Shown here one piece after another: positions 726 through 24,624 of a stretch of 45,633 nt of DNA; positions within the stretch are counted from its first letter, which is position 1; each line of letters starts with the position of its first letter. The notes under the pieces were generated by a model. It searched no databases. It saw only the letters and a list, made by a program, of their open reading frames with translations, and was not told the origin of the DNA. Location: positions 1 through 45,633 of the IMG/VR virus record IMGVR_UViG_3300043119_000202; one strand, written 5' to 3'. The stretch is from a virus. A program made the position numbers and the translations under genes.

Positions 726-1148
726 ATGATTATGGCCGTTGTAGTTTTTGACATTGCAGAGTTCCGGGCGCTGTACCCGAACATCGTGGCGACCGATGCG
801 CAGCTTCGGATGTTCTTCAGCATTGCCGAGGGATTCCTCGACAACACGGATTGCAGCATCGTGAAGGACGTTGAGGCGCGCAAGACCATGCTTTATTTGC
901 TGGTGGCGCACCTGGCGACGCTGAATCAGCAGGCAGAAAGTGGTAATGCTGTTGTTGGCCGCGTGGCCAGCGCTACGGAAGGTTCCGTGTCGATCTCGCT
1001 GGACTACGGCAGCATGGGCAATAACGAGCGCTGGTATCTACAGACACCATACGGCGCGACCTACTGGCAGATCACCAAGAAGTACCGCTCCTTCCTCTAC
1101 CGCCTCGGCAAGTCGCCCATGCCGGTGCGTAGGACGTATGTTCAATGA
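726..1148 (+). CDS. Head-tail connector protein, DUF4054-like (putative)
   Basis: The ORF-track start at 681 lies inside the terminator, so ATG 726 or 732 is more plausible. Position after the capsid gene. N-terminus MAVVVFDIAEFRALYPN resembles DUF4054 family starts (from memory). Confidence 0.55.
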   Translation: MIMAVVVFDIAEFRALYPNIVATDAQLRMFFSIAEGFLDNTDCSIVKDVEARKTMLYLLVAHLATLNQQAESGNAVVGRVASATEGSVSISLDYGSMGNNERWYLQTPYGATYWQITKKYRSFLYRLGKSPMPVRRTYVQ

Positions 1149-1561
1149 GCCTGGCCGACAAGCTGCAAAAGATCGCCGCCCAGCGTGCGGTTAAGGCGCG
1201 TGTCGGGATTCTTGAAGATAAGACGTACCCGGATGGCGCGGGCGTTGCAGAAGTCGGCTACATGAACGAATACGGCACCGAGACGATCCCGCCGCGCCCG
1301 TTCTTCCGTAAAGCCGTATCGGACAACCGTGACAAACTGCCGGCCATGATGGCGGCGCTTCTCAAGCAACACGACGCGGAAACGGCAATGCGGCTGGTGT
1401 GCGAGCACATGGCGGATGAACTGAAAATGTCCGTCATGACCTGGGAGGAGCCGCCGAACGCGCCGAGCACCATAGCCGCCAAAGGCTACAACGCCCCCCT
1501 ACGCGGCCCCGACCGCCTCCTCCGCAACTCATTCAGCTACGAGATAAATCCATATGATTAA
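1145..1561 (+). CDS. HK97 gp10-like head-tail joining protein (putative)
   Basis: ATGA overlap with the upstream gene. Motif EYGTETIPPRPFF resembles the gp10-family E.G....PARPF signature. Confidence 0.55.
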   Translation: MSLADKLQKIAAQRAVKARVGILEDKTYPDGAGVAEVGYMNEYGTETIPPRPFFRKAVSDNRDKLPAMMAALLKQHDAETAMRLVCEHMADELKMSVMTWEEPPNAPSTIAAKGYNAPLRGPDRLLRNSFSYEINPYD

Positions 1562-3193: not shown

Positions 3194-3703
3194 ATGGCCG
3201 TTTCCACAGACGATCACTACGAAATAATCACCGAGCTTCGGCAGTTCATCCTGGCGACTCTGCCGGATGCTACGCCCGCGCAAGTTATCCGCGACACGCA
3301 GAACTATGCGGCCCTGCCGTATAACGCGATAACTATCGCCATGCTGTTCGATTCAGAGCTGGACTATTCTTCGACGTATTACGATGCAGACGCCGAACTT
3401 GCCGCCGTGCATAACTCAGTCGAGGCGCGAGTGCAGTTTTCGTTCTACGGCAAAGAGGCGCCGAAACGCAGCAGGATCATTGCCCAGTTGTGGCGGAACT
3501 ATTACACATGCGACCGCCTGACCAAGTGCAAACCGCTCTATGTTCAGTCGCGGCAGCGCCTGCCGTATATAAACGACTCTTCCCAATATGAAGACAGGTA
3601 TATCTTAGACCTTGCTTTGCAGTACAATCCCGTGGTAACTCACGCGCAAGACTTTGCGGATAGCGCAGAGATTGCAATCATTCCAGTAAATGAGGGTAGC
3701 TAG
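3194..3703 (+). CDS. Tail-module protein upstream of sheath (tail completion or terminator-like, putative)
   Basis: The ORF-track start at 3020 would run through the terminator and overlap 2716..3138, so I chose ATG 3194 (MAVSTDDHYE). The stop abuts the sheath start at 3704. Confidence 0.55.
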   Translation: MAVSTDDHYEIITELRQFILATLPDATPAQVIRDTQNYAALPYNAITIAMLFDSELDYSSTYYDADAELAAVHNSVEARVQFSFYGKEAPKRSRIIAQLWRNYYTCDRLTKCKPLYVQSRQRLPYINDSSQYEDRYILDLALQYNPVVTHAQDFADSAEIAIIPVNEGS

Positions 3704-5659: not shown

Positions 5660-6105
5660 TGGCGATTCTGACTAAAGAAGTCACGATTGCCGAGGGCAGC
5701 GACGAAGGCAAGACCTTCGTCGTTTCCCAGATGCCCCTGCTTCGTGGCGACCGATGGGCTAACCGTGCGGCGCTGGCGCTGATGAAGTCGGGCGTGGACG
5801 TTTCTTCGCTGAAGGGTCTGGAAGGCGCGCGGTCTGGCGACTTCACCGGCATGCTGGACATTGCCGAGATTCTGAACGCTGTGCTGAAAGCGCTGGGCGG
5901 CATTGAAGAACACGTTGCGCAGGAATTGCTGGACGAGCTGCTGACTGTCGTGAAGCTCAAGCTGCCTGACGGCGCAACACGGCCAATCATCCCGCCAAGC
6001 GAGCATGCAGCCGGCGATATCACCAGCATTGCAACCCTGTGGAAACTGCGCATCGAGGCTATCAAGGTGAACCTTGATTTTTTGAAGGCAGGCGTTACCC
6101 GGTAA
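5659..6105 (+). CDS. Tail assembly chaperone (frame-0 product)
   Basis: Position immediately upstream of the tape measure gene. Contains the slippery run at 6078..6084 near its 3' end. Confidence 0.65.
   Translation: MAILTKEVTIAEGSDEGKTFVVSQMPLLRGDRWANRAALALMKSGVDVSSLKGLEGARSGDFTGMLDIAEILNAVLKALGGIEEHVAQELLDELLTVVKLKLPDGATRPIIPPSEHAAGDITSIATLWKLRIEAIKVNLDFLKAGVTR
6078..6084 (+). promoter_or_regulatory. Candidate -1 programmed ribosomal frameshift heptamer T TTT TTG
   Basis: In the 5659 frame the codons read gat ttt ttg. The -1 frame is open from 6078 through 6335. The site lies 19 nt before the frame-0 stop (taa, 6103..6105). Confidence 0.5.
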
Positions 6106-12646: not shown

Positions 12647-13259
12647 ATCGACCATCATGTCGCAATACGCAAACAGTCCCGTGCTGTTGCGTTTGATTGA
12701 GGATATTGGCGACCGTATCGATCCGACTGCCGATATTGAGCAGTTTTACAACATTGTGATGAACTTGCATACGGCTCAAGGTTTCGGCCTTGATATATGG
12801 GGCCGCATTGTCGGTATATCTCGGCGCGTATCCATTGCCGACCCGGAAGGCGAATACTTCGGGTTTTCTGACGGATTTTATCCGTTCAATCAGCGGCCTT
12901 TTTTCTCGCCAACTCAGAACGCATACGAGCTGCCGGATAATGTTTATCGTGGCCTGATTTTTATTAAGGCAACCGTAAACATCATCAATGCCACCGCGCC
13001 AAATATTAACCGGTTGATGAAAGCTGCTTTTAACGGCAAGAAGTGCTATTTTCTCATCACTGGGCACATGAAGGCGCGCTATGTTTTCGAGTTCGCGCTG
13101 ACTCCATTTGAGCGATTCCTTGTTTACAATACGGATATATTGCCTCGCCCGTGCGGCGTTCAAATTGAAGTTATAGACGCAATACCGCCAGAGACTTTCG
13201 GATTCACTGGCACTGGCTTCCAACCTTTCAACCAAGGGACATTCTATGGCGGACTATAA
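12630..13259 (+). CDS. Baseplate/tail-fibre connector (DUF2612-like, putative)
   Basis: 209 aa between the J-like and fibre genes. Markedly lower GC: hand count of line 12961..13020 gives 25/60. Confidence 0.6.
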
Positions 13260-14943
13260 GATTCTCACTATTCCGTTTGCGCGCGACGCCGTGCCGGATA
13301 TGGTGAACGATATCCCTGAAACTCCGAGCCCTTCAGAGCCTCAGCTGGCGTCGTATCGCCAAGGGTTCCCGGTTATCACGACCATCCCGCTGGTGGCAGG
13401 TGGCCTTCCGCCTGAAGGCCAAGACTTCAACGGTATCTTGCGCGATATCACCCAGCACATCGTTCATCAGAACCAGGGGGGTATGTACAAGTTCGCACCT
13501 GAAGTTGTAGCTGCTGGCGGTTATGCCAAGGGCGCCGTTCTGGCATCCAATGACGATCTTTCGCTGTGGGTGTCGCTGCAAAACAACAACGTGCAGGACT
13601 TCAACACCGGCACGCCTACCCAGTGGGCGCGGATTGCGTTTAGCGGGCTGGATGCGCTGCTAAATACAAAGGCGGACAAGGCTGTTTCTATCAATGCTGG
13701 CACCGGCCTGACTGGCGGCGGCAACTTGAGCGCAAACCGTACTTTGTCCGTCAACTACGGAACCACTGAGGGTACTGCTGCTCAGGGCAATGATAGTAGG
13801 TTGAGTGACGCACGCGAATGGTCTGCTGAAACTGTATCACAGGCAGAAGCTGAGGCAGGTACTGCAACCACCCGCCGGGCGTGGACAGCAGAGCGTGTGC
13901 GGCAGGCTATTGTTGCGTGGTGGAATGGCGTTAGTAGTGCGTGGGGTAGGGGCTTTGTGGCGTCTGCTGATGCCGCAGCTGGCCGTACTGCACTGGAATT
14001 GGGTAATGCTGCTACGGCGAATGTGACTACCAGTGCAACGGATACAACCGCCGGTAGGTTATTAAAAGTTGGTGATTTTGGGCTTGGGGGGCCGGTTTTT
14101 CACCCGACCGACTGGAACACAACTATGTCCAGTGGTATTTACAGCTCAGGTGGTAATCCATCAACGGGCATTATTCCTTATGATCCCCCGTTCGGCTCAA
14201 CATTAGTAATGCGGTATATGGAGGGGGGTTCTCCAGTTTTAACGGCAAAACTGCATATTAGATATGATGCTGTAGAGCCTAGAGCATATATTCAGAGTGG
14301 AAACCAAGCCCCTTGGCGAGAACTCTACCACACCGGCAACCTGTCTATCGTGCAGACAACCGGCCAATCCGCCGCATCAATTATGAGCCAGAAGGCGGTG
14401 ACTGATGCGCTTTCTGGATTTGTTCTTGCCACGCAAGCCGAGGCAGAAGCGGGAACCGATAACTCAAAGTACATGTCGCCGCTTCGGGTTTTTCAATCAC
14501 TGCGCTCGGCTGCGGCACTCGCCACGGAAACGCTACGCGGCGTGCTCCGCGTAGGCACTCAAGCAGAGGTGGAAGCGGGAGATCTGGACGACGTGGCGGT
14601 CACCCCGAAAAAGCTGCGCTTCGGTGTTTCCTATCTGATCGCGGCCAATGGGTACTTGGCCTTTCCGAAGTGGCTCGGCGGGCTCGTCATTCAATGGGCA
14701 AACGTGCAGGTCTATACGAATGGGTCCAGCGGCGGAACGTCCTATCTGACACTCCCAATGGCATTCCCTGGCGAGTTTTTTGGCGCGTTGGCGATCAAGA
14801 AGAACACCCCCGCGGTCAATGGGGCGGAAACAGTTCAGGCCGCGCCTTACACGCTCAGCCAGGTGGCAATTAGCCTTGACTCTGCGTCGGGCCAAGAGGG
14901 CGCTGGAAATCGGGACATCTTTTACATCGGGCTAGGGAAATGA
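13246..14943 (+). CDS. Tail fibre protein
   Basis: 565 aa. Three copies of the motif (S/T)QAE(A/V)EAG..., Gly-rich segments, and a C-terminus [14 protein letters not shown]...TLPMAFP typical of gp53-like fibre tips (from memory). Confidence 0.8.
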
Positions 14944-16797: not shown

Positions 16798-16937
16798 TGC
16801 AGATGGCGGGGTGGATCGTCGCGGTAGCATTGGCTTTGGTTAAGGATAGCGAACGCGCAGCCGTGGCGAATGAATGCCGGCAGGGTGGGGCGTTTGTCAG
16901 CAAGCGGACAGGTTTTGAATGCGAGGTTAAGCGATGA
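16797..16937 (+). CDS. 46-aa membrane peptide (not in the ORF track)
   Basis: ATG overlaps the upstream stop (cTGATGc) and its stop overlaps the endolysin ATG (gcgATGA). Hydrophobic N-terminus MQMAGWIVAVALALV. Confidence 0.4.
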   Translation: MQMAGWIVAVALALVKDSERAAVANECRQGGAFVSKRTGFECEVKR

Positions 16938-17404
16938 ACATTGAACGAGCGCTGGAAATACTGCTTAGGCATGAAGGCGGATATGTTGACCACAGTTCCG
17001 ACCCGGGCGGCGCAACGAATCACGGCATCACTGAGCGCGTGGCCCGCAAGCACGGCTACACAGGACACATGCGCGACCTGCCGCTGAGTATGGCCATAAC
17101 GATCTACCGCAAAGACTACTGGGACGCCATTCGTGCCGACTCGCTGCCGGACGCTATCAGGTTCCACGTGTTTGACGCGGCAGTGAATAGCGGCGTAACT
17201 CAGGCAATCAAGTGGTTGCAGCGCGCTGGCGGGGCTGTAGAGGATGGCATCATCGGGCCGCGCACTATTGCCGCTGCCGCACGGGTGACGCCGGCGAAGT
17301 ACAGCGCTATCCGTCTGCGGTTCATGACCGGGCTGCCGACCTGGGGCGCGTTCGGGCGCGGATGGGCGCGTCGCATTGCCGACAACTTGGAAATCGAATC
17401 ATGA
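16934..17404 (+). CDS. Endolysin, glycoside hydrolase family 108 with PG_binding_3-like C-terminus
   Basis: The GH108 signature LRHEGGYVDHSSDPGGATNHGIT is present. Confidence 0.85.
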   Translation: MNIERALEILLRHEGGYVDHSSDPGGATNHGITERVARKHGYTGHMRDLPLSMAITIYRKDYWDAIRADSLPDAIRFHVFDAAVNSGVTQAIKWLQRAGGAVEDGIIGPRTIAAAARVTPAKYSAIRLRFMTGLPTWGAFGRGWARRIADNLEIES

Positions 17405-17838
17405 GCATCATAGCCGCCGCAACCGCCCTGCTGCCTACCCTGACCGGCATCCTCGACAAGGTAATCCCAGACCCCGAGGCGCGCGCCAAGGCACAGCTTG
17501 ACCTTCTGCGATTGCAGCAGGAAGGCCAGTTCAAAGAGCTGGACGCACAGCTACAGGTCAACCTGGCACAGGCCGAGATTAACAAGATCGAAGCCGCCAG
17601 CCAGTCGGGGTATCAGGCGGGCTGGCGACCACTGGCCGGGTACGTGTGCGTGGCGGGGCTGGCCTATGAGTTCCTGTTGCGTCCGCTTCTGCCGTGGGCG
17701 TTGAACGTGTATGGCGCTGATGCACCGGCCCTGCCGTCGCTCGATGGCGTGCTGTTTGAGCTGATGTTCGGCATGCTAGGCCTGGGTACGCTTCGCACGG
17801 CTGACCGCTGGAAGCGGATGAATGCGCTCAGCAAGTAG
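17401..17838 (+). CDS. Holin (3-TM, DUF3154-like)
   Basis: ATG 17401 overlaps the endolysin stop (ATGA). N-terminus MSIIAAATALLPTLTGILDKVIPDP and C-terminal hydrophobic helices fit the 3-TM holin family (from memory). Confidence 0.65.
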   Translation: MSIIAAATALLPTLTGILDKVIPDPEARAKAQLDLLRLQQEGQFKELDAQLQVNLAQAEINKIEAASQSGYQAGWRPLAGYVCVAGLAYEFLLRPLLPWALNVYGADAPALPSLDGVLFELMFGMLGLGTLRTADRWKRMNALSK

Positions 17839-17887
17839 CGCCCCGCTTCCATCCGTGCCATACTAACCGCACTCCTAGTGGTACTTC

Positions 17888-17912
17888 GCCCGTCTTCGTG
17901 ACGGGCTTTTTT
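17888..17912. terminator. Convergence terminator between the late (+) and early (-) arms
   Basis: gcccgtc-ttcgt-gacgggc followed by tttttt on the plus strand. On the minus strand the hairpin directly follows the TAA of the 55-aa HTH gene. Confidence 0.8.
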
Positions 17913-18078
17913 ATGCCAGTTCGCCACTCCCAGCCACCTGCCGAACCGCCAGCACATACCACGCCGGCGCTTCGTCTGTAGACTCATAATTCTGGATCGT
18001 GCGCCTGCTGAGCTGCAAAAGGGCAGCTAGCTGGCGCTGTGTTAGGCCGGTTTGGTGGCGTAGGGTGCGGATGGTCAT
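17911..18078 (-). CDS. 55-aa XRE-type helix-turn-helix protein (Aca-like or Cro-like; not in the ORF track)
   Basis: Hand translation: MTIRTLRHQTGLTQRQLAALLQLSRRTIQNYESTDEAPAWYVLAVRQVAGSGELA. The ATG overlaps the upstream stop (ATGA). The stop abuts the terminator. Confidence 0.6.
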   Translation of the reverse strand: MTIRTLRHQTGLTQRQLAALLQLSRRTIQNYESTDEAPAWYVLAVRQVAGSGELA

Positions 18079-18278
18079 CGGATCACCGGGCGGCGCGCAT
18101 AAATAAAGCTCTTAAGATAACGTGCGCGATTCATTTCTTTCGCTGCCATTTCTCTCGCACGGTCTGCGGCGATGTTTTGGCCTGCGCGATCAGCTGCACG
18201 AGAAAAACGCATCTTGCGACGGGCGCTTTCTACGCAGGCGGCCATTTCTTCCTTCTGTTTCCAAAATGCAGCAGCCAT
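18075..18278 (-). CDS. 67-aa Arg/Lys-rich helical protein, unknown function
   Basis: ATG 18278 is preceded by ggggaaaag. The longer ORF-track start at 18392 would include the promoter at 18322..18350. Confidence 0.5.
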   Translation of the reverse strand: MAAAFWKQKEEMAACVESARRKMRFSRAADRAGQNIAADRAREMAAKEMNRARYLKSFIYARRPVIR

Positions 18279-18321
18279 ATCTTTTCCCCTAGTGATTCCC
18301 AGTTTCTCCGGGCTTGGCGTC

Positions 18322-18350
18322 ACTATAGGCGCAGTTGTTGCGCCTGTAAA
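18322..18350 (-). promoter_or_regulatory. Sigma70-like promoter TTTACA-17-TATAGT with an inverted repeat filling the spacer
   Basis: The minus strand reads tttaca ggcgcaacaactgcgcc tatagt. Inverted repeat AGGCGCA-N5-TGCGCCT lies at 18327..18345. Confidence 0.55.
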
Positions 18351-18485
18351 CACCCTTACGATATTTTTTATTCGACGACTGCACCCGGCCAAATCGACCG
18401 CGCCACCTCTAGCGCGTCCTCGGTGTCTTCCATCAAGATCATGATGAACGGCGCGCGACCCGGTATTAGGACGCGCCAGATTCTT

Positions 18486-19151
18486 TTATTCATTGAGCCA
18501 CCTGCCCCACTGATCGCCCATTGCGGCGGCAATGCCTGGATATGTGGCGCTTCTTTCTAGCCAGCGATCAGCGCCAGGGATGAGTCGGTTCTGGCCGCTG
18601 TCCGTCTGGTTTGCCCAGCGCGGTCGCCCATTAACCATGCGCGGCTCGGCGTATCGCGTAGGCTTCAGTAGCGGGACACCATCGCTCAACCATAATCCGG
18701 TTGCCTTGCTGGCGTCGTCGCCGAATTGGTACGGCTGGACGATCTGCGACGGTTTGCGGATCGCCTTACTTACGAATGACTTGCCTGGGTTCTCGATTGC
18801 TACCGGGAAAGGCAACGCCAGCAACTTGCGGAAGTTATCCAGCGCTTCGTCACGGGCTGCACGGCGCTCGGCACCCACTAGGGTTCCGGGCTTGACCTTT
18901 TGATGATATGGCCCGTCTGTAAAAGCCCAAGCTGCTGAGCAAGTCAGATAAGTACACATAGGATGAAGAACAGCAAAGTCCCATCTATCCGAAAGCATAT
19001 CCCAAACGTCTCCCAGGTAGTGAAACAGCGCATTATCACGCGACGGCAGCAAGTCGCACGTCCACACTTCATGACCATGCGCTTCAAACGCCTTGCGCGT
19101 CAGCGGGCACGCGCTGTATCCAATCAATACTTTACTCACTCTGCCACCCAT
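18486..19151 (-). CDS. Compact DNA (cytosine-5)-methyltransferase-like protein
   Basis: KVLIGYSACPLTRKAFEAHGHEVWTCDLLP...GDVWDML...FAVLHPMCTYLT (PC-like motif) and AIENP (ENV-like motif). The start is uncertain: ATG 19151 or GTG 19139. Confidence 0.65.
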   Translation of the reverse strand: MGGRVSKVLIGYSACPLTRKAFEAHGHEVWTCDLLPSRDNALFHYLGDVWDMLSDRWDFAVLHPMCTYLTCSAAWAFTDGPYHQKVKPGTLVGAERRAARDEALDNFRKLLALPFPVAIENPGKSFVSKAIRKPSQIVQPYQFGDDASKATGLWLSDGVPLLKPTRYAEPRMVNGRPRWANQTDSGQNRLIPGADRWLERSATYPGIAAAMGDQWGRWLNE

Positions 19152-19614
19152 TCCCCTTCGGCGGCACAGGCTTACGCCGCACAAACTCTACCGTCTCACC
19201 CCGGGCGCGCAGCCATGCCGTCAACGGCTGCGGCGTGCTCCAGCCTATCGCCCTGGCCACCTCTGATTTTGTCATACGCCTGGCCATGCTGCGTATTGCA
19301 GTTGCTGCCGGCACGCCATGGCGCGCTTCGTATCTTGCCGCTATGCCAGTCGGCTTGCTCAGCTTGGCGCGCCTGATCCGCTCGATTCGCTCAGCGCTGT
19401 GCGGCCCGCGCTCGCGCTGGACGTTGCACTTGCCATGCGCCGGCCATTCGATCACTACGCCGTGTCGCTTGATAAGTCGGCGAAACGATGACGGCGAGCT
19501 ATAGCCAAGAATGCCGGCAGTGGTGTCACAGCCGTAACCGTCTGCCGCGTAGCCGCGCACGACTTCCCAGAAGGGTTCGCCGTATTCCTGTTCTACCTGC
19601 TCTATGATGGTCAT
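19132..19614 (-). CDS. Hypothetical DNA-binding-like protein (160 aa)
   Basis: Clean ORF with ATGA coupling upstream. Basic C-terminal half. Confidence 0.55.
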   Translation of the reverse strand: MTIIEQVEQEYGEPFWEVVRGYAADGYGCDTTAGILGYSSPSSFRRLIKRHGVVIEWPAHGKCNVQRERGPHSAERIERIRRAKLSKPTGIAARYEARHGVPAATAIRSMARRMTKSEVARAIGWSTPQPLTAWLRARGETVEFVRRKPVPPKGNGWQSE

Positions 19615-20567
19615 GCTGGCACCCGCTCCGGCACGGCCTCAGCCCGCTGGCAATGCCCGCACTGCCACGTCCACACGCCATCCATAGCGACCAGCTCCAT
19701 CGGCTGATAGTGGCACTTCGGCGGCTCCACTACGCGCCCGAGCGCCGCCAGAACCGGAACGCCCGGATGAATGTCGAGCGCATCCGTCACGCGCTGCACG
19801 ATGTTGACGGCGCACTGCAACACGGCCTGGTCGCTCTCCATCCTGGAAAGCGCCTTAACCTTCGGCTGGTGCTCCATGCAGACCTTGAAGCGCACGTCCT
19901 TGGCTAGCTGGCGGATGGCGGCGGCTGTGCCGTGGAATTTCAGCGACAAGGCCAGCATCAGCGTCAGGTCGATAGCGTTGTATTGCATCGAGGTGGTGCG
20001 CTGGAGCCAGCGGGGGAGGGTTATGGGGTTGGGCATGGTTAGGTGTCCTGGTGGTATGTAGCGAGGGCGCTTTGCGATTTCGCTGACCATCTCTACAGAA
20101 TGGATTGGCATATCGCGCTCGTCTTCGATAAAGGCGTCCGCACGCATCTCGATCTTCTCCAGCGCCTCCACCAGCGCCCGCAAGTCCGGGCCTGACTGCG
20201 GGGTGGTGCTGAACACCTGCTGATTTGCCGGAATATTCTCGCGCATCTTCATGCCGGCCAGCACAGTGCTCAGCGGGCATCCGCGCTTGATCTTGGTTGC
20301 GGGAGGAAGCATCACGTCGCACGGAATGCGCTGTTCCAGCAATCCCCGCGTCGCCTCAAGCTGGGTGCGCAGCTCGTAACCCTGCTGCATCAGCCTGGGC
20401 ATTCCCTCTTCGACTGTGCGCTTCAGGCGCCCATTCTCAGCCCGCAGCGCCTCGGCCTCTGCGCGCATGGCGTCGTAGTCGGTTGCAAGCACTAAAACCA
20501 CGCCTTGCTGGATTTCTAGGTATGCAGCAGCGATTGGCCCAACTGTAATTCGTCTTGCGTCGGTCAT
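19611..20567 (-). CDS. Hypothetical protein with an N-terminal ATDYDA coiled-coil module (318 aa)
   Basis: ATG 20567 has RBS aagagga. The ORF-track start at 20603 overlaps the upstream gene. Confidence 0.6.
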   Translation of the reverse strand: MTDARRITVGPIAAAYLEIQQGVVLVLATDYDAMRAEAEALRAENGRLKRTVEEGMPRLMQQGYELRTQLEATRGLLEQRIPCDVMLPPATKIKRGCPLSTVLAGMKMRENIPANQQVFSTTPQSGPDLRALVEALEKIEMRADAFIEDERDMPIHSVEMVSEIAKRPRYIPPGHLTMPNPITLPRWLQRTTSMQYNAIDLTLMLALSLKFHGTAAAIRQLAKDVRFKVCMEHQPKVKALSRMESDQAVLQCAVNIVQRVTDALDIHPGVPVLAALGRVVEPPKCHYQPMELVAMDGVWTWQCGHCQRAEAVPERVPA

Positions 20568-20569
20568 AG

Positions 20570-21031
20570 TCAATCCTCTTGCGGCCAGGCGCCCCAGCCC
20601 CATGCTTGTTTGTCCTCAGTTGGATGCTTGTCGGTACGAGGTCTGCTCGGGCAATCCCAACTGCGACCCTTGACCATCCACAGCATCTTCCATCCGGCAG
20701 CACGAAGACTCGCGCCGGATTCCGATGCCAAAATGTATGTAAGACCACGCCGAAAGCCTTTCGCTTCTGCTGCGCGCTTGCTCGCCGCGTACAGGATGCT
20801 GCACGCGTTCTGAGTGCCGTCAGTGCAAAGGCGAGTGACCTCACACGTCAGGCCATCATCCAGTGCGCGGGCCACAGGCCTTCCAACGCATGCGACTCCG
20901 ACCAAAACCCCATCGTCGTTGTGCACGGCGTGGCGCCATAGCTCTCCGACCGGTGCGCCGTGGTGCCGATGCTTTTCCTTGATGTATGCGTGGGCCTGAT
21001 CGCGTGTTATTGGGCGTAATTCAAGACGCAT
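20570..21031 (-). CDS. GNAT-fold protein of the XF1762 / Mom-like type (putative DNA- or protein-modifying acyltransferase)
   Basis: AHAYIKEKHRHHGAPVG...GVACVGRPVARALDDGLTCEVTRLCTDG...SILYAASKRAAEAKGF...TYILASESGASLRAAGW matches the family pattern recalled from memory. TGATG coupling upstream, after aaggagaggtg. Confidence 0.45.
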   Translation of the reverse strand: MRLELRPITRDQAHAYIKEKHRHHGAPVGELWRHAVHNDDGVLVGVACVGRPVARALDDGLTCEVTRLCTDGTQNACSILYAASKRAAEAKGFRRGLTYILASESGASLRAAGWKMLWMVKGRSWDCPSRPRTDKHPTEDKQAWGWGAWPQED

Positions 21032-21330
21032 CACACCTCTCCTTCTTCGGTGGCAGCGGCGGGGCGTTGTTCCCGCTTCGCGAATTTCAGAATATCGATT
21101 TTCATGCCTATGTCGTCGAGCGCCTGGCCTTCGGCGAGAACTTCGCCTCGTTCAGAAACAATGACGCGCGTTCGCCAGCCATTCGGGTGCTCAATGAACC
21201 AAGCATGCGCAGCCAGAACAGTTCCGGCAGCGTCTGGATTTCTTGCGTACTCAGTAGTGGCGCTGTCCTTCCACCACCTGATGCCGAGTTCGTTTACAAA
21301 ATCCGGCTCCGTATCGAAAGGCGGCCTCAT
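21031..21330 (-). CDS. Hypothetical protein (99 aa)
   Basis: ATGA coupling with the upstream gene. Confidence 0.6.
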   Translation of the reverse strand: MRPPFDTEPDFVNELGIRWWKDSATTEYARNPDAAGTVLAAHAWFIEHPNGWRTRVIVSERGEVLAEGQALDDIGMKIDILKFAKREQRPAAATEEGEV

Positions 21331-21926
21331 GCCTCACCCCCATTGAGAAGGGCGTAAAGGCGCCGCTCGGCCTGCACCCTTGTGTCATGATCTTGGCTCA
21401 CCAGATCAGCCAGCAACTCCCTCGGCACGCTCACATGCGCGGACTGCTGGGCCTCGAAACCGTTGTACCACTTGCCGCCTTCCTTGAAATCGTCAGGCCA
21501 GCAGTGCTCGCAGTATTCGTTGTGGTCGCACTTGCAGTGAGTCAGGTCGCGTGCGCCCCATGCCGCCTGCTTCGCCACCTTGTACGAATGCTCGCAGCAG
21601 AACTCAGCCTTAACCGGCTCTGCGCTGGATAGCAGGGCGTCGATGCTTTCCAGTAGCGCGGGAAAAACTTTGCTACATCGTAGGCTGTCAGCGGTTTCCC
21701 GCAGCACCGCGTCGCGCTTGGCCACCTTGGCATTCAGAACTATGTGCGAATGAAGCGCGTCTTGATAGAACTCCTCCTTCACATCTAGCGCATGCCGCAA
21801 AGCACTTTTCTCACGCTCAGCCGCATCGAGCCGGGATTGCAGGGCGTCGTAGTCTGTTGCTTTCACATACTCGCTATGCTCAGGGCCATTTTTGAAAATC
21901 CAACGATTTACTTCTTGCTCACTCAT
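21327..21926 (-). CDS. Hypothetical protein with an ATDYDA coiled-coil module and a Cys/His-rich C-terminal half (199 aa)
   Basis: RBS aggaga before ATG 21926. The sequence CCEH...HCKCDHNEYCEHCW is present. Confidence 0.6.
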   Translation of the reverse strand: MSEQEVNRWIFKNGPEHSEYVKATDYDALQSRLDAAEREKSALRHALDVKEEFYQDALHSHIVLNAKVAKRDAVLRETADSLRCSKVFPALLESIDALLSSAEPVKAEFCCEHSYKVAKQAAWGARDLTHCKCDHNEYCEHCWPDDFKEGGKWYNGFEAQQSAHVSVPRELLADLVSQDHDTRVQAERRLYALLNGGEA

Positions 21927-22170
21927 TGCTGTTCTCCTGTGCGCTGGATACGTATTCCCGCAGCAACTTCATCTTGCATGCCTGGCAGACAATGCCGCTG
22001 CTCGCCTGATAGGGGATATCCAGAGCCATGACGGCAACCGCATATCCCGGCCCAACATCTCGGCCATCTCCTGGTGTTACCTGAATGCGAATCTCGCCGT
22101 CGGCTGATCCGCACTCTTTCCCGCACAGATCGCACGTCACCACGGTTACGGTTTTAGTTGTAATGCCCAT
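21919..22170 (-). CDS. Zinc-ribbon protein (83 aa)
   Basis: CDLCGKEC ... CQACK pairs of cysteines. ATG 22170 overlaps the upstream TGA (TGATG) after gggaggg. Confidence 0.55.
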   Translation of the reverse strand: MGITTKTVTVVTCDLCGKECGSADGEIRIQVTPGDGRDVGPGYAVAVMALDIPYQASSGIVCQACKMKLLREYVSSAQENSNE

Positions 22171-23207
22171 CACTCACCCTCCCGCTCACGTTTCGCTAGG
22201 AGGGCGCTAGCAGCCTCAACTGTTCTGTCGATTGAGGCTTGGCGCTTTGGCTTGTGGCTGGCGTAGGCCGCTCGGTGATGTTCTGCTGCATCAATGGCAA
22301 GATCGCGCAGGTCTTCCAGCAACTCCACCGGCACCCGCACCTCCCCGGCATCGCGGGCGGCGAGCTGGGCCAGTTCTTCGCGGTGCTCCCGACTGGACTG
22401 CTCGTTTCCGTCGAATCGCTTCTGTATTTCTGCCGCCATCAGCCGCTTGTGCTGGGCGACGGTCATGAGGGGTTCGGTTTCCCACAGTGACTTACGCTCT
22501 ACGCCGGCCTGCCATTTCTCCTGCTCGCTATGGCGGTAGCGCCACGCCACCACCTCCACCTCTTCCTGAGCCGATCCAGCAGCCGGCAGGGAAGGGGCTT
22601 CATCAGGCCGCTCAAACACGCGATTCAGCACGTCGGACAGCACTGCATAGGCGTCGGCGCAACTGGCAAAACGTGCAGCGGCTTCGCTCTGTTCACCCGC
22701 AGCGATGGTCCAGATGTCGCCGTCCAGGCTGTCAGCGTCATCGCGGAATAATCCGGCTGCGATCAGCTGCACCAGGGCGGGCTTGGCTTCGCGGTAATCG
22801 TCGGTGCTGGCAGTGAATGGGCATCCGTTGTCGCCCGCCAGCGCTTCAAGCAGGCGAACCCATACGAACTCAGGCGTGGGCGCCTGCTCAGCCTTGACGG
22901 TTGGGGCGGCCAGCAAATTAGCCAGCAGCTCAGGCGCGATCAGTTCAGCGCTCATATCGTGAAAGCAGCGGACACTCTCCAGCGCATCGGCTATTTGCTC
23001 AGCTGTCGGGATTGGCATGTAGCCATCCGGCACACCCACCGGCAGGCTGGCGCGGGTTTTCCACACAATCCAGGCGTTATTCACGTAGCGATCAACGTAA
23101 TCGCCATGCTGCTCCCGCTCAAAATTGGCCGTATACGGCCCCATGAGTCGGCTAAACGATCTCTCAAACGCCGCCCGCTCCTGATCCATCTTCTGCTGTT
23201 CGCTCAT
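22170..23207 (-). CDS. Hypothetical protein (345 aa)
   Basis: ATG 23207 follows ggaggggaag. The ORF-track start at 23225 is a GTG without an RBS. Confidence 0.6.
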   Translation of the reverse strand: MSEQQKMDQERAAFERSFSRLMGPYTANFEREQHGDYVDRYVNNAWIVWKTRASLPVGVPDGYMPIPTAEQIADALESVRCFHDMSAELIAPELLANLLAAPTVKAEQAPTPEFVWVRLLEALAGDNGCPFTASTDDYREAKPALVQLIAAGLFRDDADSLDGDIWTIAAGEQSEAAARFASCADAYAVLSDVLNRVFERPDEAPSLPAAGSAQEEVEVVAWRYRHSEQEKWQAGVERKSLWETEPLMTVAQHKRLMAAEIQKRFDGNEQSSREHREELAQLAARDAGEVRVPVELLEDLRDLAIDAAEHHRAAYASHKPKRQASIDRTVEAASALLAKREREGE

Positions 23208-23268
23208 CTTCCCCTCCAAGGGCACTTATCTGAGTTGTGATCGTCTCGACCGCAATAGCAGCAGCCGG

Positions 23269-23436
23269 TTATGCGAAATATGCCCACAATATAGCGCATA
23301 CGATGATGCCTCCCGTTACGATCAACTCGACGGGGCGCACGATATCAAGACCGCCGATCATGCGCTCGCCATAGCGGCGTTGGTTGCTGATGTGCTGCTC
23401 AACCTGTGCGCGGTTTGCTTTGGTTGCTTGTTTCAT
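23269..23436 (-). CDS. Tail-anchored small membrane protein (55 aa)
   Basis: ATG 23436 is preceded by gaggtg. C-terminal hydrophobic helix LIVTGGIIVCAILWAYFA. Confidence 0.45.
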   Translation of the reverse strand: MKQATKANRAQVEQHISNQRRYGERMIGGLDIVRPVELIVTGGIIVCAILWAYFA

Positions 23437-23555
23437 CTGCTGCACCTCGAATAAGGGCAGCGCCTGGTTATCATGGATGGCCGCTGTGCAACCGTGTTTC
23501 CGATGATAGAGCCAGTTCACTGGGAAGGGTGTGGCCGCTGGGCAGTCACGGGGTT

Positions 23556-23584
23556 AATATAAGTTATAAATTGTGGTATGGCAA
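23556..23584 (-). promoter_or_regulatory. Sigma70-like promoter TTGCCA-17-TATATT
   Basis: The minus strand reads ttgcca taccacaatttataact tatatt, in the AT-rich gap after the methyltransferase stop. Confidence 0.45.
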
Positions 23585-23592
23585 GAGGCTAA

Positions 23593-24624
23593 TCAGATAA
23601 GGCTTTCCTGGGTCATTTGCTCGCCTTGATCAAAACGATCAGCGGCAAGCTCAAGATTGATTCGCGCCTGCTTGAAATAGCTGTCTTTCAGCTCGATACC
23701 GATAGCTTTACGGCCCATGCTAACCGGGCTGTAAACCTCGCTACCAACGCCCATAAACGGCGTTAGAACAGTCTCGCCCTTGTTGCTGTACATGTAGACC
23801 AGCCGGTCGATAACGTCGAGTTGCAGCGGGTGGACGTGCTTTTCGTCGTCATCCTCTTTGCTGTCACGGAAAGGCAGGACGTTGTCGATACGAATGTCGT
23901 CCCAGAACGCATCGGCATAACGACGCCAGGTGTAGTGGCTCAGCTTGTTGGTTTTCGGGTCTTTGTGGTTGGCATACTTGGTATTCAGGTACTCCCACAA
24001 CTGTTCGCAGGTATCCATGTGCGGGTTATCTTCTGAGTTGTTCCACGCCTCCAGAAAGTGCGGGAGGATGGGCTGCTCGCCAAAGTACGGAAACTCAGTA
24101 AGGCCAAAGTCATGAGTGACTGGCACCTCGGTGTCGCCCTTGCGGGTGAAGATCAGCACATAGTCAGGCATAGCAGAGAAACACTTGGTCATATCCTCTA
24201 CCACCAGCTTGTGCATCAAGCTCTTCACCATCGTGCGCATGCGCACCTTCAGCGGCTCCTTGCGGATACCTTGACGGCAACGGAACTGAAACCCGTGTTT
24301 CTGGTGGATCTTGATAATCTCCCCAGGGAAGTCCCACAGGTTACAGTCGTTGTCGAAAACATCGGTGCAATGCACGGCAGTGATTCGGCCAGGCTTGGTA
24401 ATCCGCGCAATCTCTTTAACCATGAACTCGTACTGAATCAGGAACTGTTCCCGAGTCTCGCAGTTGCTCATGTCGCGGTGGTCGCTGCTGTATTGGTACA
24501 GGCCGCAAAATGGCGGGCTATAAATCGACAGATCAACCGAGTTGTCTGGAATGGTCGGCAATACCGCCATGTTGTCGCCGTTGTAGATGCTGTAGCTTTC
24601 GGTGTGGATTTGATCTTTGACCAT
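23593..24624 (-). CDS. DNA methyltransferase, beta-class N4/N6 (motif IV = SPPF, suggesting N4-cytosine specificity)
   Basis: IYSPPFCGLYQYS lies near the N-terminus and LTPFMGVGSE (FxGxG-like AdoMet motif) near the C-terminus. Confidence 0.8.
   Translation of the reverse strand: MVKDQIHTESYSIYNGDNMAVLPTIPDNSVDLSIYSPPFCGLYQYSSDHRDMSNCETREQFLIQYEFMVKEIARITKPGRITAVHCTDVFDNDCNLWDFPGEIIKIHQKHGFQFRCRQGIRKEPLKVRMRTMVKSLMHKLVVEDMTKCFSAMPDYVLIFTRKGDTEVPVTHDFGLTEFPYFGEQPILPHFLEAWNNSEDNPHMDTCEQLWEYLNTKYANHKDPKTNKLSHYTWRRYADAFWDDIRIDNVLPFRDSKEDDDEKHVHPLQLDVIDRLVYMYSNKGETVLTPFMGVGSEVYSPVSMGRKAIGIELKDSYFKQARINLELAADRFDQGEQMTQESLI

Follow-up and report, generated by a model that had tools for sequence, protein, structure and literature searches.

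A candidate acr-aca-type operon with a strongly basic 67-residue cargo protein at the distal end of a phage early gene block

Does the short gene cassette at the distal end of the minus-strand early block of the phage contig IMGVR_UViG_3300043119_000202 (IMG/VR) encode an anti-CRISPR (Acr) or other anti-defence function that is controlled by its own anti-CRISPR-associated (Aca) repressor? The whole record of 45,633 nucleotides, hereafter called the window, was analyzed, and related loci from other contigs are referred to by labels such as L003. The cassette consists of a promoter with an inverted repeat in its spacer, a gene for a protein of 67 amino acids (aa), a gene for a 55-aa helix-turn-helix (HTH) protein and a GC-rich hairpin. 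A preliminary description had proposed an acr-aca-like layout for it, and direct reading revealed that all the sequence features on which that proposal was built were present on the minus strand where they had been placed. We consider it probable that the cassette is an acr-aca-type, self-limiting anti-defence operon. In particular, a short operon closes with a small HTH gene that follows one or more small genes; an inverted-repeat operator is located within the core promoter and is conserved together with the HTH; and the HTH is found with differing upstream genes in related elements, one of which belongs to a validated Acr family. The proposed layout is thus supported by a variable cargo, by an AcrIE4 homologue in the cargo slot and by an operator that is tied to the HTH.

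The first of these points was evident from blastn comparisons of the window with related loci. In the comparisons with L017, L006, L007, L015 and L012, homology ended at position 18322, which is the last base of the -10 box, and restarted at 18086-18076, at the start of the HTH gene. In L003, homology ran on through the 5' untranslated region (UTR) to 18285, and the open reading frame (ORF) alone was exchanged there. HTH homologues with 79-94% identity were found directly 3' of at least five unrelated sets of small genes, in phage backbones that were otherwise syntenic. The place of the basic 67-aa protein of the window was taken by a Cys-rich 64-aa protein in L003, a 101-aa protein in L006, L015 and L017, an acidic 51-aa protein in L007, L008 and L009 (L016 is the same contig as L007), and a 70-aa plus a 98-aa protein in L012. 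The tail of the 98-aa gene alone remained before the HTH gene in L013, which is truncated upstream. The preliminary description had asked whether HTH homologues adjoin variable small genes in other phages or always keep one conserved neighbour, and the answer was clear, as the upstream neighbour varied in the related phages. Additionally, the HTH of L014 (835-1110) was preceded in frame by 38 unrelated N-terminal residues, as part of a 91-aa fusion protein, with no operator upstream; this may represent an Acr-Aca-type fusion or a recombination product.

The exchange of partners also bears on a different explanation, in which the cassette would be a type II toxin-antitoxin system with the 67-aa protein as the toxin and the XRE-type HTH as an autorepressing antitoxin, in the reverse order as in HigBA. 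A toxin-first, HTH-second layout behind a promoter-operator does resemble that of acr-aca loci (PMC9410906), and the HTH produced weak NCBIfam antitoxin matches (Y4mF/HipB, 3e-7; MqsA, 1e-6), all of which were far under the cut-offs. However, near-identical HTH proteins (up to 94%) with at least five unrelated partners are incompatible with a co-evolving toxin-antitoxin interface. Furthermore, the 67-aa family occurred mostly without an HTH partner, the 67-aa protein matched no toxin family, and the 55-aa HTH was modeled as a four-helix DNA-binding domain alone, with no predicted toxin-binding domain. We regard this explanation as extremely improbable and rejected it on the ground that HTHs with 79-94% identity have exchanged their partners.

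Among the exchanged cargo proteins, the 51-aa protein was found to match the Pfam family PF25703 ('Anti-CRISPR protein F31') at 62.8 bits (cut-off 27). It aligned to residues 5-52 of AcrIE4-F7 (PDB 7vzm) with an E-value of 3e-10 and an identity of about 42% over 48 residues, as counted by hand from the alignment. The N-terminal domain of AcrIE4-F7, which is the AcrIE4 module, binds Cas8e at the site of protospacer adjacent motif recognition and blocks the type I-E system of P. aeruginosa (PMC8887544). The HTH beside the 51-aa homologue was 94% identical to that of the window, and the presence of a validated-Acr homologue beside a near-identical HTH corresponds to the guilt-by-association criterion used to define Aca genes. 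The names AcrIF31 and AcrF31 were found in no paper by literature string searches. For the 64-aa, 98-aa and 101-aa cargo proteins, no significant sequence match was found in the PDB, and Pfam searches with the cargo other than the AcrIE4 homologue were likewise empty.

The operator provided the third line of evidence. The palindrome fills the 17-nucleotide spacer of the promoter and overlaps each hexamer by one base, and its pattern was found once in the 45.6-kb window with up to two mismatches allowed. Seven distinct promoter/operator loci were compared, namely the window, L003, L006, L007 (also L008, L009 and L016), L012, L015 and L017, and the shared sequence reads TT(T/G)ACAGGCGCAA-NNNN-TGCGCCTA(T/C)AGT, with minor hexamer variants (TTGACA and TACAGT in L017). 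All half-site bases (14/14) were invariant over six aligned loci, and L012 had identical half-sites. The four central bases varied (CAAC, CTGC, TATG, TCTA, ATAG and CCGC, with L012 repeating the TATG of L006). Judged from these alignments, invariant half-sites around a free center form the pattern expected for a site that is read by a dimeric HTH. The exact operator was present in one copy in each HTH locus having upstream DNA and in none (0/6) of the loci in which a 67-aa homologue occurs without the HTH, which indicates that the operator belongs to the HTH and not to the cargo. Scans with the exact operator pattern returned nothing new from viral contigs and genome contigs, and the scan of metagenomes returned only L016. 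The promoter was the sole sigma-70-like site in 17000-22000 on both strands in a consensus scan (10/12 matches). As a single such site per 5 kb is not above chance by itself (1.6 expected), the significance of the promoter derives from the uniqueness of the operator in the window and the conservation of promoter and operator in related loci, not from the scan alone. We also observed a 9-bp insertion, GTAAGGGTG, at 18351-18359 on the minus strand, directly upstream of the -35 hexamer, that was absent from all six related loci; it displaces an A/T-rich stretch that abuts the -35 hexamer elsewhere and could weaken an UP-element-like contribution.

With one operator in the whole genome, the HTH is more plausibly a dedicated autoregulator than a Cro-like or late regulator. 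The alternative, in which the HTH is a general phage regulator (Cro-type, a late switch or a C-protein-like controller of a methyltransferase) and the small ORF is incidental, draws on a Foldseek list that also contains C.Kpn2I, C.EcoT38IS, C.BclI, C.AhdI and phage repressors, and on the methyltransferase gene that is located upstream of the operon (Table 1). Nevertheless, the sole operator in 45.6 kb sits in the HTH's own promoter which leaves every other gene without a target site; the promoter, operator and HTH are retained in L007 and L015, where the methyltransferase gene is missing; a restriction endonuclease is not present; and the gene upstream of the HTH is variable instead of fixed. 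A general regulator is therefore very unlikely. Its variant as a C-protein or methyltransferase controller was rejected, as the module is kept in loci without the methyltransferase and the partner gene is variable.

Each Aca family that has been tested acts as a repressor by way of an inverted repeat located in the core promoter (PMC9410906), and for Aca11 and Aca13 the repeat is placed between the -35 and -10 boxes (PMC12282945). A comparable mechanism can be proposed for the cassette. At the start of infection, the HTH protein would be absent and the near-consensus promoter TTTACA-17-TATAGT would fire. One mRNA would carry the genes for the 67-aa cargo and the 55-aa HTH, and the ATGA overlap that joins the stop codon of the former to the start codon of the latter would couple their translation. 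The accumulating HTH dimer would then bind the 19-bp palindrome, exclude RNA polymerase and shut the operon. The HTH is predicted to bind the operator and to repress the operon. The 67-aa basic helical hairpin, whose candidate role is suggested by its position, would meanwhile inhibit a host defence. Because the same slot holds an AcrIE4-like gene, CRISPR-Cas is our default guess for the target.

To which family does the putative autorepressor belong? The 55-aa protein is of the XRE type according to its Pfam matches (HTH_31, 2e-8; HTH_3, 7e-7), and its ratio of nonsynonymous to synonymous polymorphism (pN/pS, 0.12-0.43) indicated purifying selection. The AlphaFold model of the protein contained four helices, with a predicted local distance difference test (pLDDT) score of 87.8. 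For comparison, one hidden Markov model (HMM) per family was used for Aca1-Aca10, derived from the members in the supplement of Shehreen et al. 2022 (PMC9410906). True Aca1-10 members scored 88-173 bits against the HMM of their own family, with a cross-family background of up to 42 bits. The window HTH scored 21.7 bits with Aca1, 21.5 with Aca10, 20.0 with Aca6 and 18.9 with Aca3, and lower with the remaining families. It was not a member of Aca1, whose members score 130-160 bits (phmmer against PDB sequences, E 0.47; profile search, E 0.005), nor of Aca2, Aca4, Aca5 and Aca8, with which it reached at most 6.1 bits compared with 103-173 for members. The 11-22 bits obtained with Aca3, Aca6, Aca7, Aca9 and Aca10 (members, 88-137) equal the cross-family background. 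Profile-profile alignment with hhalign yielded probabilities of 91-97% alike for Aca1, 3, 6, 7, 9 and 10, over the HTH core (33 residues) only, and these similar values point to no specific affinity.

At the level of the fold, the top four Foldseek matches out of 350,542 PDB chains were all Aca1 of phage JBD30, with template modeling (TM) scores of 0.75-0.79 and identities of 31-35%, at E-values that were not significant (0.12-0.19). The preliminary description had suggested a resemblance of the HTH tail to Aca1. A similarity of fold and motif (...NY.S...EAP..V..A...A) was indeed found, but the protein is not a member of the Aca1 family, and the comparison with the Aca families that it had recommended placed the HTH outside Aca1-10. 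By sequence, we conclude that the HTH is a distinct XRE-type family outside Aca1-10. Aca11-13 come from Streptococcus elements, Aca12 has 140 aa, Aca13 has no HTH and Aca14 is a ribbon-helix-helix protein (PMC12282945, PMC13551039); membership in Aca11-14 is unlikely, as these descriptions set them apart. The HTH peptide was not found in the AcaFinder supplements, and its profile search returned nothing from genome contigs and one locus, L017, from viral contigs.

We next consider the cargo of the window itself. A ribosome-binding site (RBS), aggggaaaag at 18290-18281 on the minus strand, precedes the ATG codon of the 67-aa gene. The preliminary description had treated this ORF as a genuine gene, which was borne out by homologues of the same length at 70-77% identity and by pN/pS values of 0.12-0.27 against three homologues, indicative of purifying selection. 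More distant homologues were 38-56% identical and mostly had 62-70 aa, with a few longer. The family is small, with approximately 16 clusters in an exhaustive HMM search of 1.84 billion representatives and a profile search of 5.8 billion sequences; profile searches of viral contigs returned nothing. Its members share the motif MAAxxWKxKxExxxCVxSARRKxRFxR, in which the SARRK core is invariant, and the window protein is strongly basic, with an isoelectric point (pI) of 11.2 and 17 Lys/Arg. The AlphaFold model was a confident two-helix hairpin (residues 2-31 and 35-62; pLDDT 90.5). The recommended Foldseek search with it, in the PDB and BFVD, gave no informative fold match and returned generic helical hairpins only (such as rubrerythrin, ferritin and PspA), with E-values above 0.03. 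Neither the 67-aa nor the HTH peptide was found in any paper by literature string searches.

Outside the window, the homologues of the 67-aa protein are surrounded by small early genes of phages. In L002, L011, L018 and L020, the homologue is located directly behind a sigma-70-like promoter, each with a different inverted repeat, whereas the L010 copy had no evident promoter upstream. The L002 homologue is the first gene of an operon that is divergent from a Cro-like HTH and replication genes. These contexts are consistent with an immediate-early, repressor-gated role such as defence inhibition, and are also compatible with a nucleic-acid-binding regulator. A 5'-UTR block, CCCATCGAAACGAACAAC, is common to L002 (~3630-3650), L011 (~1388-1406) and L020 (~6076-6093), directly upstream of a hairpin. 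It stands behind different operators (AGTGA-AATA-TCACT in L002, GTGAC-TT-GTCAC in L011 and ATAAT-C-ATTAT in L020) in phage contexts that are otherwise different, and the window copy of the gene lacks this block.

The 5' UTR of the cassette also contains a short hairpin, which was predicted in the centroid fold (Table 1). Its energy was not significant by itself (z = 0.41), as was mostly the case across loci (z from +1.2 to -2.3), and its sequence was unique in the window. In all 5' UTRs of the slot, and with all 67-aa homologues elsewhere, we observed a short GC hairpin that has a 3-5-nucleotide, often A-rich loop and lies a few nucleotides ahead of the RBS; these hairpins were alike in shape and different in sequence between loci. 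Operons of Aca1, Aca2, Aca10 and Aca12 are reported to have regulatory RNA hairpins in their 5' UTRs (PMC13551039). By analogy, the hairpin of the cassette could be a second, translational control point, or merely a stem that stabilizes the mRNA.

Another possibility is that the operon is Aca-like and autoregulated and that the 67-aa protein is a small nucleic-acid-binding regulator, such as an RNA binder on its own 5'-UTR hairpin, an N-like protein or an early-gene regulator. The composition of the protein (17 Lys/Arg in 67 residues at pI 11.2, with the invariant SARRK core and the conserved MAAxxWKxK N-terminus) would fit such a function, as would the location of the family directly behind promoters with differing inverted repeats in the four loci named above. 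The L002 copy, moreover, occupies the position of N in lambdoid phages, and a short GC hairpin that differs by locus precedes the RBS in all members examined. On the other hand, the 67-aa gene is penultimate in its unit, with only the HTH and a convergent operon downstream and nothing to antiterminate, and the uniqueness of the hairpin leaves no second nut-like site in the window. In L003, the 5' UTR of the cassette, with its hairpin, precedes an unrelated ORF, so the hairpin is not specific to the 67-aa protein; the hairpin energies are mostly not significant; and in a sister phage the slot is occupied by an AcrIE4 homologue. We rejected an N/nut-like role of the hairpin for this locus, as the hairpin is unique, common to the unrelated cargo of L003 and energetically unremarkable, with nothing downstream. 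The wider proposal of a small regulator is unlikely in our view, and on the basis of the position in the slot we consider an anti-defence function of the 67-aa protein more likely than a regulatory one.

Several observations weigh against an anti-defence operon. The 67-aa protein has a pI of 11.2 compared with 4.0-5.9 for the other cargo in the slot, and most known Acr proteins are acidic. The protein had no match in Pfam (E up to 1), PHROGs, NCBIfam and PDB sequences (E up to 10), and together with Foldseek these searches revealed no similarity to a described Acr or anti-defence family, by sequence or fold. Its homologues in L002, L010, L011, L018 and L020 are not beside this HTH or a downstream aca-like gene. 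The HTH loci all belong to a single narrow lineage of phages, in which the flanks are 79-94% identical, and the association of the HTH with varying cargo therefore rests on few independent events. Many other XRE proteins followed closely behind the Aca1 structures in the fold search, and genes upstream of aca are not always Acr genes (PMC13551039).

With these points taken into account, we still favor an acr-aca-type anti-defence operon. A bolder version is tentative and somewhat more doubtful than not: the HTH would found an unnamed Aca family with its own operator, and the slot would hold several new anti-CRISPR or anti-defence families, comprising the 67-aa SARRK protein and the 64-, 70-, 98- and 101-aa proteins, of which the 67-aa protein would be an unusual basic helical-hairpin inhibitor that is immediate-early and repressor-gated in several unrelated phage backbones. 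If the 67-aa protein does inhibit a defence, it is unlikely to work as the usual acidic DNA mimic; it might instead act on nucleic acid (target DNA or crRNA, the CRISPR RNA) or on a defence complex that exposes an acidic surface.

The 3' end of the cassette differed in part from what had been proposed. The hairpin claimed as the terminator of the cassette is present at 17888, but its T-run is on the plus strand, so it serves the lysis operon. Read on the minus strand, the hairpin GCCCGTC-acgaa-GACGGGC at 17906-17888 has AAAAA before and GAAGTACC after it, with no U-tract. The hairpin is chiefly an intrinsic terminator for the holin/lysis operon, which converges on the cassette, and to the cassette transcript it can offer no more than weak termination or a stabilizing structure at the 3' end. 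Rfam searches yielded sub-threshold sRNA-like (small RNA-like) matches only, which ended on the plus-strand terminator. We also found a NinX-family gene (PF10765) between the HTH and the lysis genes in L003 (2969-3394), L006 (1676-2050) and L012 (907-1347). The window is without this gene, and its HTH gene abuts the shared hairpin. The presence or absence of NinX among the sister phages indicates that genes have been gained or lost on the 3' side of the module as well.

Table 1. Positions of the cassette features, of selected genes in the window and of 5'-UTR hairpins at other loci.
Feature	Locus	Position	Strand	Remarks
Sigma-70-type promoter TTTACA-17-TATAGT	window	18322..18350	-	-35 at 18350-18345; -10 at 18327-18322
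Operator AGGCGCA-N5-TGCGCCT	window	18327..18345		19 bp, perfect inverted repeat; predicted site for a dimer of the 55-aa HTH
Replaceable cargo slot	window	18087..18321	-	5' UTR plus cargo ORF; blastn boundaries
5'-UTR hairpin CCCGG-AGAAA-CTGGG	window	18298..18312	-	centroid fold; ~5-10 nucleotides from the predicted transcription start
67-aa cargo gene, candidate anti-defence effector	window	18075..18278	-	ATG 18278; stop TGA 18077-18075
55-aa XRE-type HTH gene, candidate Aca-type autorepressor	window	17911..18078	-	ATG 18078; TAA 17913-17911
GC hairpin plus T6, intrinsic terminator	window	17888..17912	+	stem 17888-17906, 7 pairs (6 GC), then TTTTTT
Second DNA methyltransferase, phrog_757	window	19184-18486	-	about 400 bp upstream of the HTH gene
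DUF7740 protein	window	20603-19611	-	faint Lar-like match
Mom-like XF1762-family protein	window	21034-20570	-	
N6/N4 DNA methylase	window	24624-23593	-	
Tail-fibre protein	window	13246-14943	+	
GH108 endolysin	window	16934-17404	+	
Holin	window	end at 17838	+	closes the lysis operon convergent with the cassette
Terminase and portal	window	39.6-42.3 kb	+	
5'-UTR hairpin	L002	about 3650-3661		
5'-UTR hairpin	L006	about 1175-1190		
5'-UTR hairpin	L007	about 1094-1108		
5'-UTR hairpin	L010	about 1126-1140		
5'-UTR hairpin	L011	about 1407-1418		
5'-UTR hairpin	L018	about 5980-5992		
5'-UTR hairpin	L020	about 6094-6105		

The window represents a whole 45.6-kb phage contig (JGI 3300043036 Ga0484712_000089), of which near-identical copies were found in Logan assemblies. 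In comparisons of DNA with annotated phage records, no close relative was found, and the matches were patchy and limited to Pseudomonas phages and a holin. The plus strand carries the structural and lysis genes, and adjacent genes for tRNA-Asn(GTT) and tRNA-Thr(TGT) were observed inside the structural block at 2135-2291 on this strand. The early genes on the minus strand include Prim-Pol, AAA_24, a YqaJ exonuclease and two helicases, and no integrase was seen among the large ORFs of the window. The cassette is located at the distal end of this minus-strand early block and converges with the lysis genes.

Directly upstream on the same strand, the cassette adjoins an anti-defence cluster (18486-24624) of DNA-modification and anti-restriction genes. 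The two methyltransferases, the Mom-like protein and the faint Lar-like match of these neighbors fit the known clustering of anti-defence genes, and Mom-like and DNA-modification genes are reported to be associated with Aca-regulated regions (PMC13551039). The phrog_757 methyltransferase gene is missing from the sister loci L007 and L015 and is thus a variable gene itself. We additionally observed an ORF for a 41-aa protein, MNKRIWRVLIPGRAPFIMILMEDTEDALEVARSIWPGAVVE, at 18368-18493 on the minus strand, which matched phrog_8532 at an E-value of 6e-12 and ends 17 nucleotides before the -35 box; all related loci have retained it directly ahead of the promoter.

The cassette belongs to a known class, the acr-aca-type operons. 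What is new is an HTH outside Aca1-10 and an uncharacterised cargo; no new principle is involved, and the acr-aca concept is unchanged. To our knowledge, Acr proteins share no common sequence features, so that aca genes are the main handle for finding anti-CRISPRs. An Aca-type marker with a defined operator and a sharply bounded slot yields a list of candidates, comprising the 67-, 64-, 70-, 98- and 101-aa proteins, from phages whose likely hosts are environmental Pseudomonas-like bacteria. The 67-aa family is distinctive among them in that it is very basic and is found repeatedly, in other phages, as the gene that comes first after an early promoter under repressor control. The pair of operator and HTH could also serve as an orthogonal repressor-promoter part, and the HTH supplied in trans could act as an 'anti-anti-CRISPR'.

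Comparison with known systems revealed likenesses and differences at each level. With respect to the cargo, the AcrIE4 homologue (compare PDB 7vzm) sits exactly in the slot that is held by the 67-aa gene in the window, whereas the window cargo is unrelated to AcrIE4, with a pI of 11.2 compared with 4.05 and a two-helix hairpin compared with a compact four-helix fold. With respect to the repressor, the Aca11 and Aca13 systems of Streptococcus mobile elements, which were compared by description, have Gram-positive hosts and type II-A Acr cargo; Aca11 and Aca13 also control a second, downstream operon, whereas the window has a single operator, and Aca13 is not an HTH protein. Aca10 (WP_074980464.1 of Pseudomonas citronellolis, PDB 7xi5), Aca3 and Aca6 are, like the window HTH, single-domain XRE HTH proteins of ~55-70 aa. 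HTH_31 is the top Pfam domain in both Aca10 and the window HTH, and BLASTP revealed 45-48% identity of Aca10 members to the window HTH over the 33-residue HTH core. However, the likeness to Aca10, Aca3 and Aca6 is limited to the generic HTH core (19-22 bits), and the C-terminal helix motif EAPAWYVLAVRQVA is not common to them.

The acr-aca1 operons of the Mu-like Pseudomonas phages JBD30, DMS3 and D3112 were also compared. Some differences from these operons are present, as the window HTH has 55 aa compared with 79 aa for Aca1, and lacks the ~20 residues by which Aca1 is extended at its N-terminus, as well as ~5 residues ahead of the last helix. A single inverted repeat occupies the spacer in the window, while Aca1 promoters contain two (PMC9410906), and the operator sequence of the window was not found in the Aca promoter sets searched. 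In their overall architecture, the two systems are alike: both contain a strong promoter with an inverted-repeat operator, followed by small exchanged cargo gene(s) and then a small HTH autorepressor, which is predicted in the case of the window. The Aca1 structures 7c0g, 7vjm, 7vjn and 7fa3 were the best fold matches of the window HTH, at the non-significant E-values given above, and the title of PDB entry 7vjm describes Aca1 with a 19-bp palindromic DNA, the operator of the window likewise being 19 bp in length. Both systems likely share the same host genus, and AcrIE4-family cargo is found in both.

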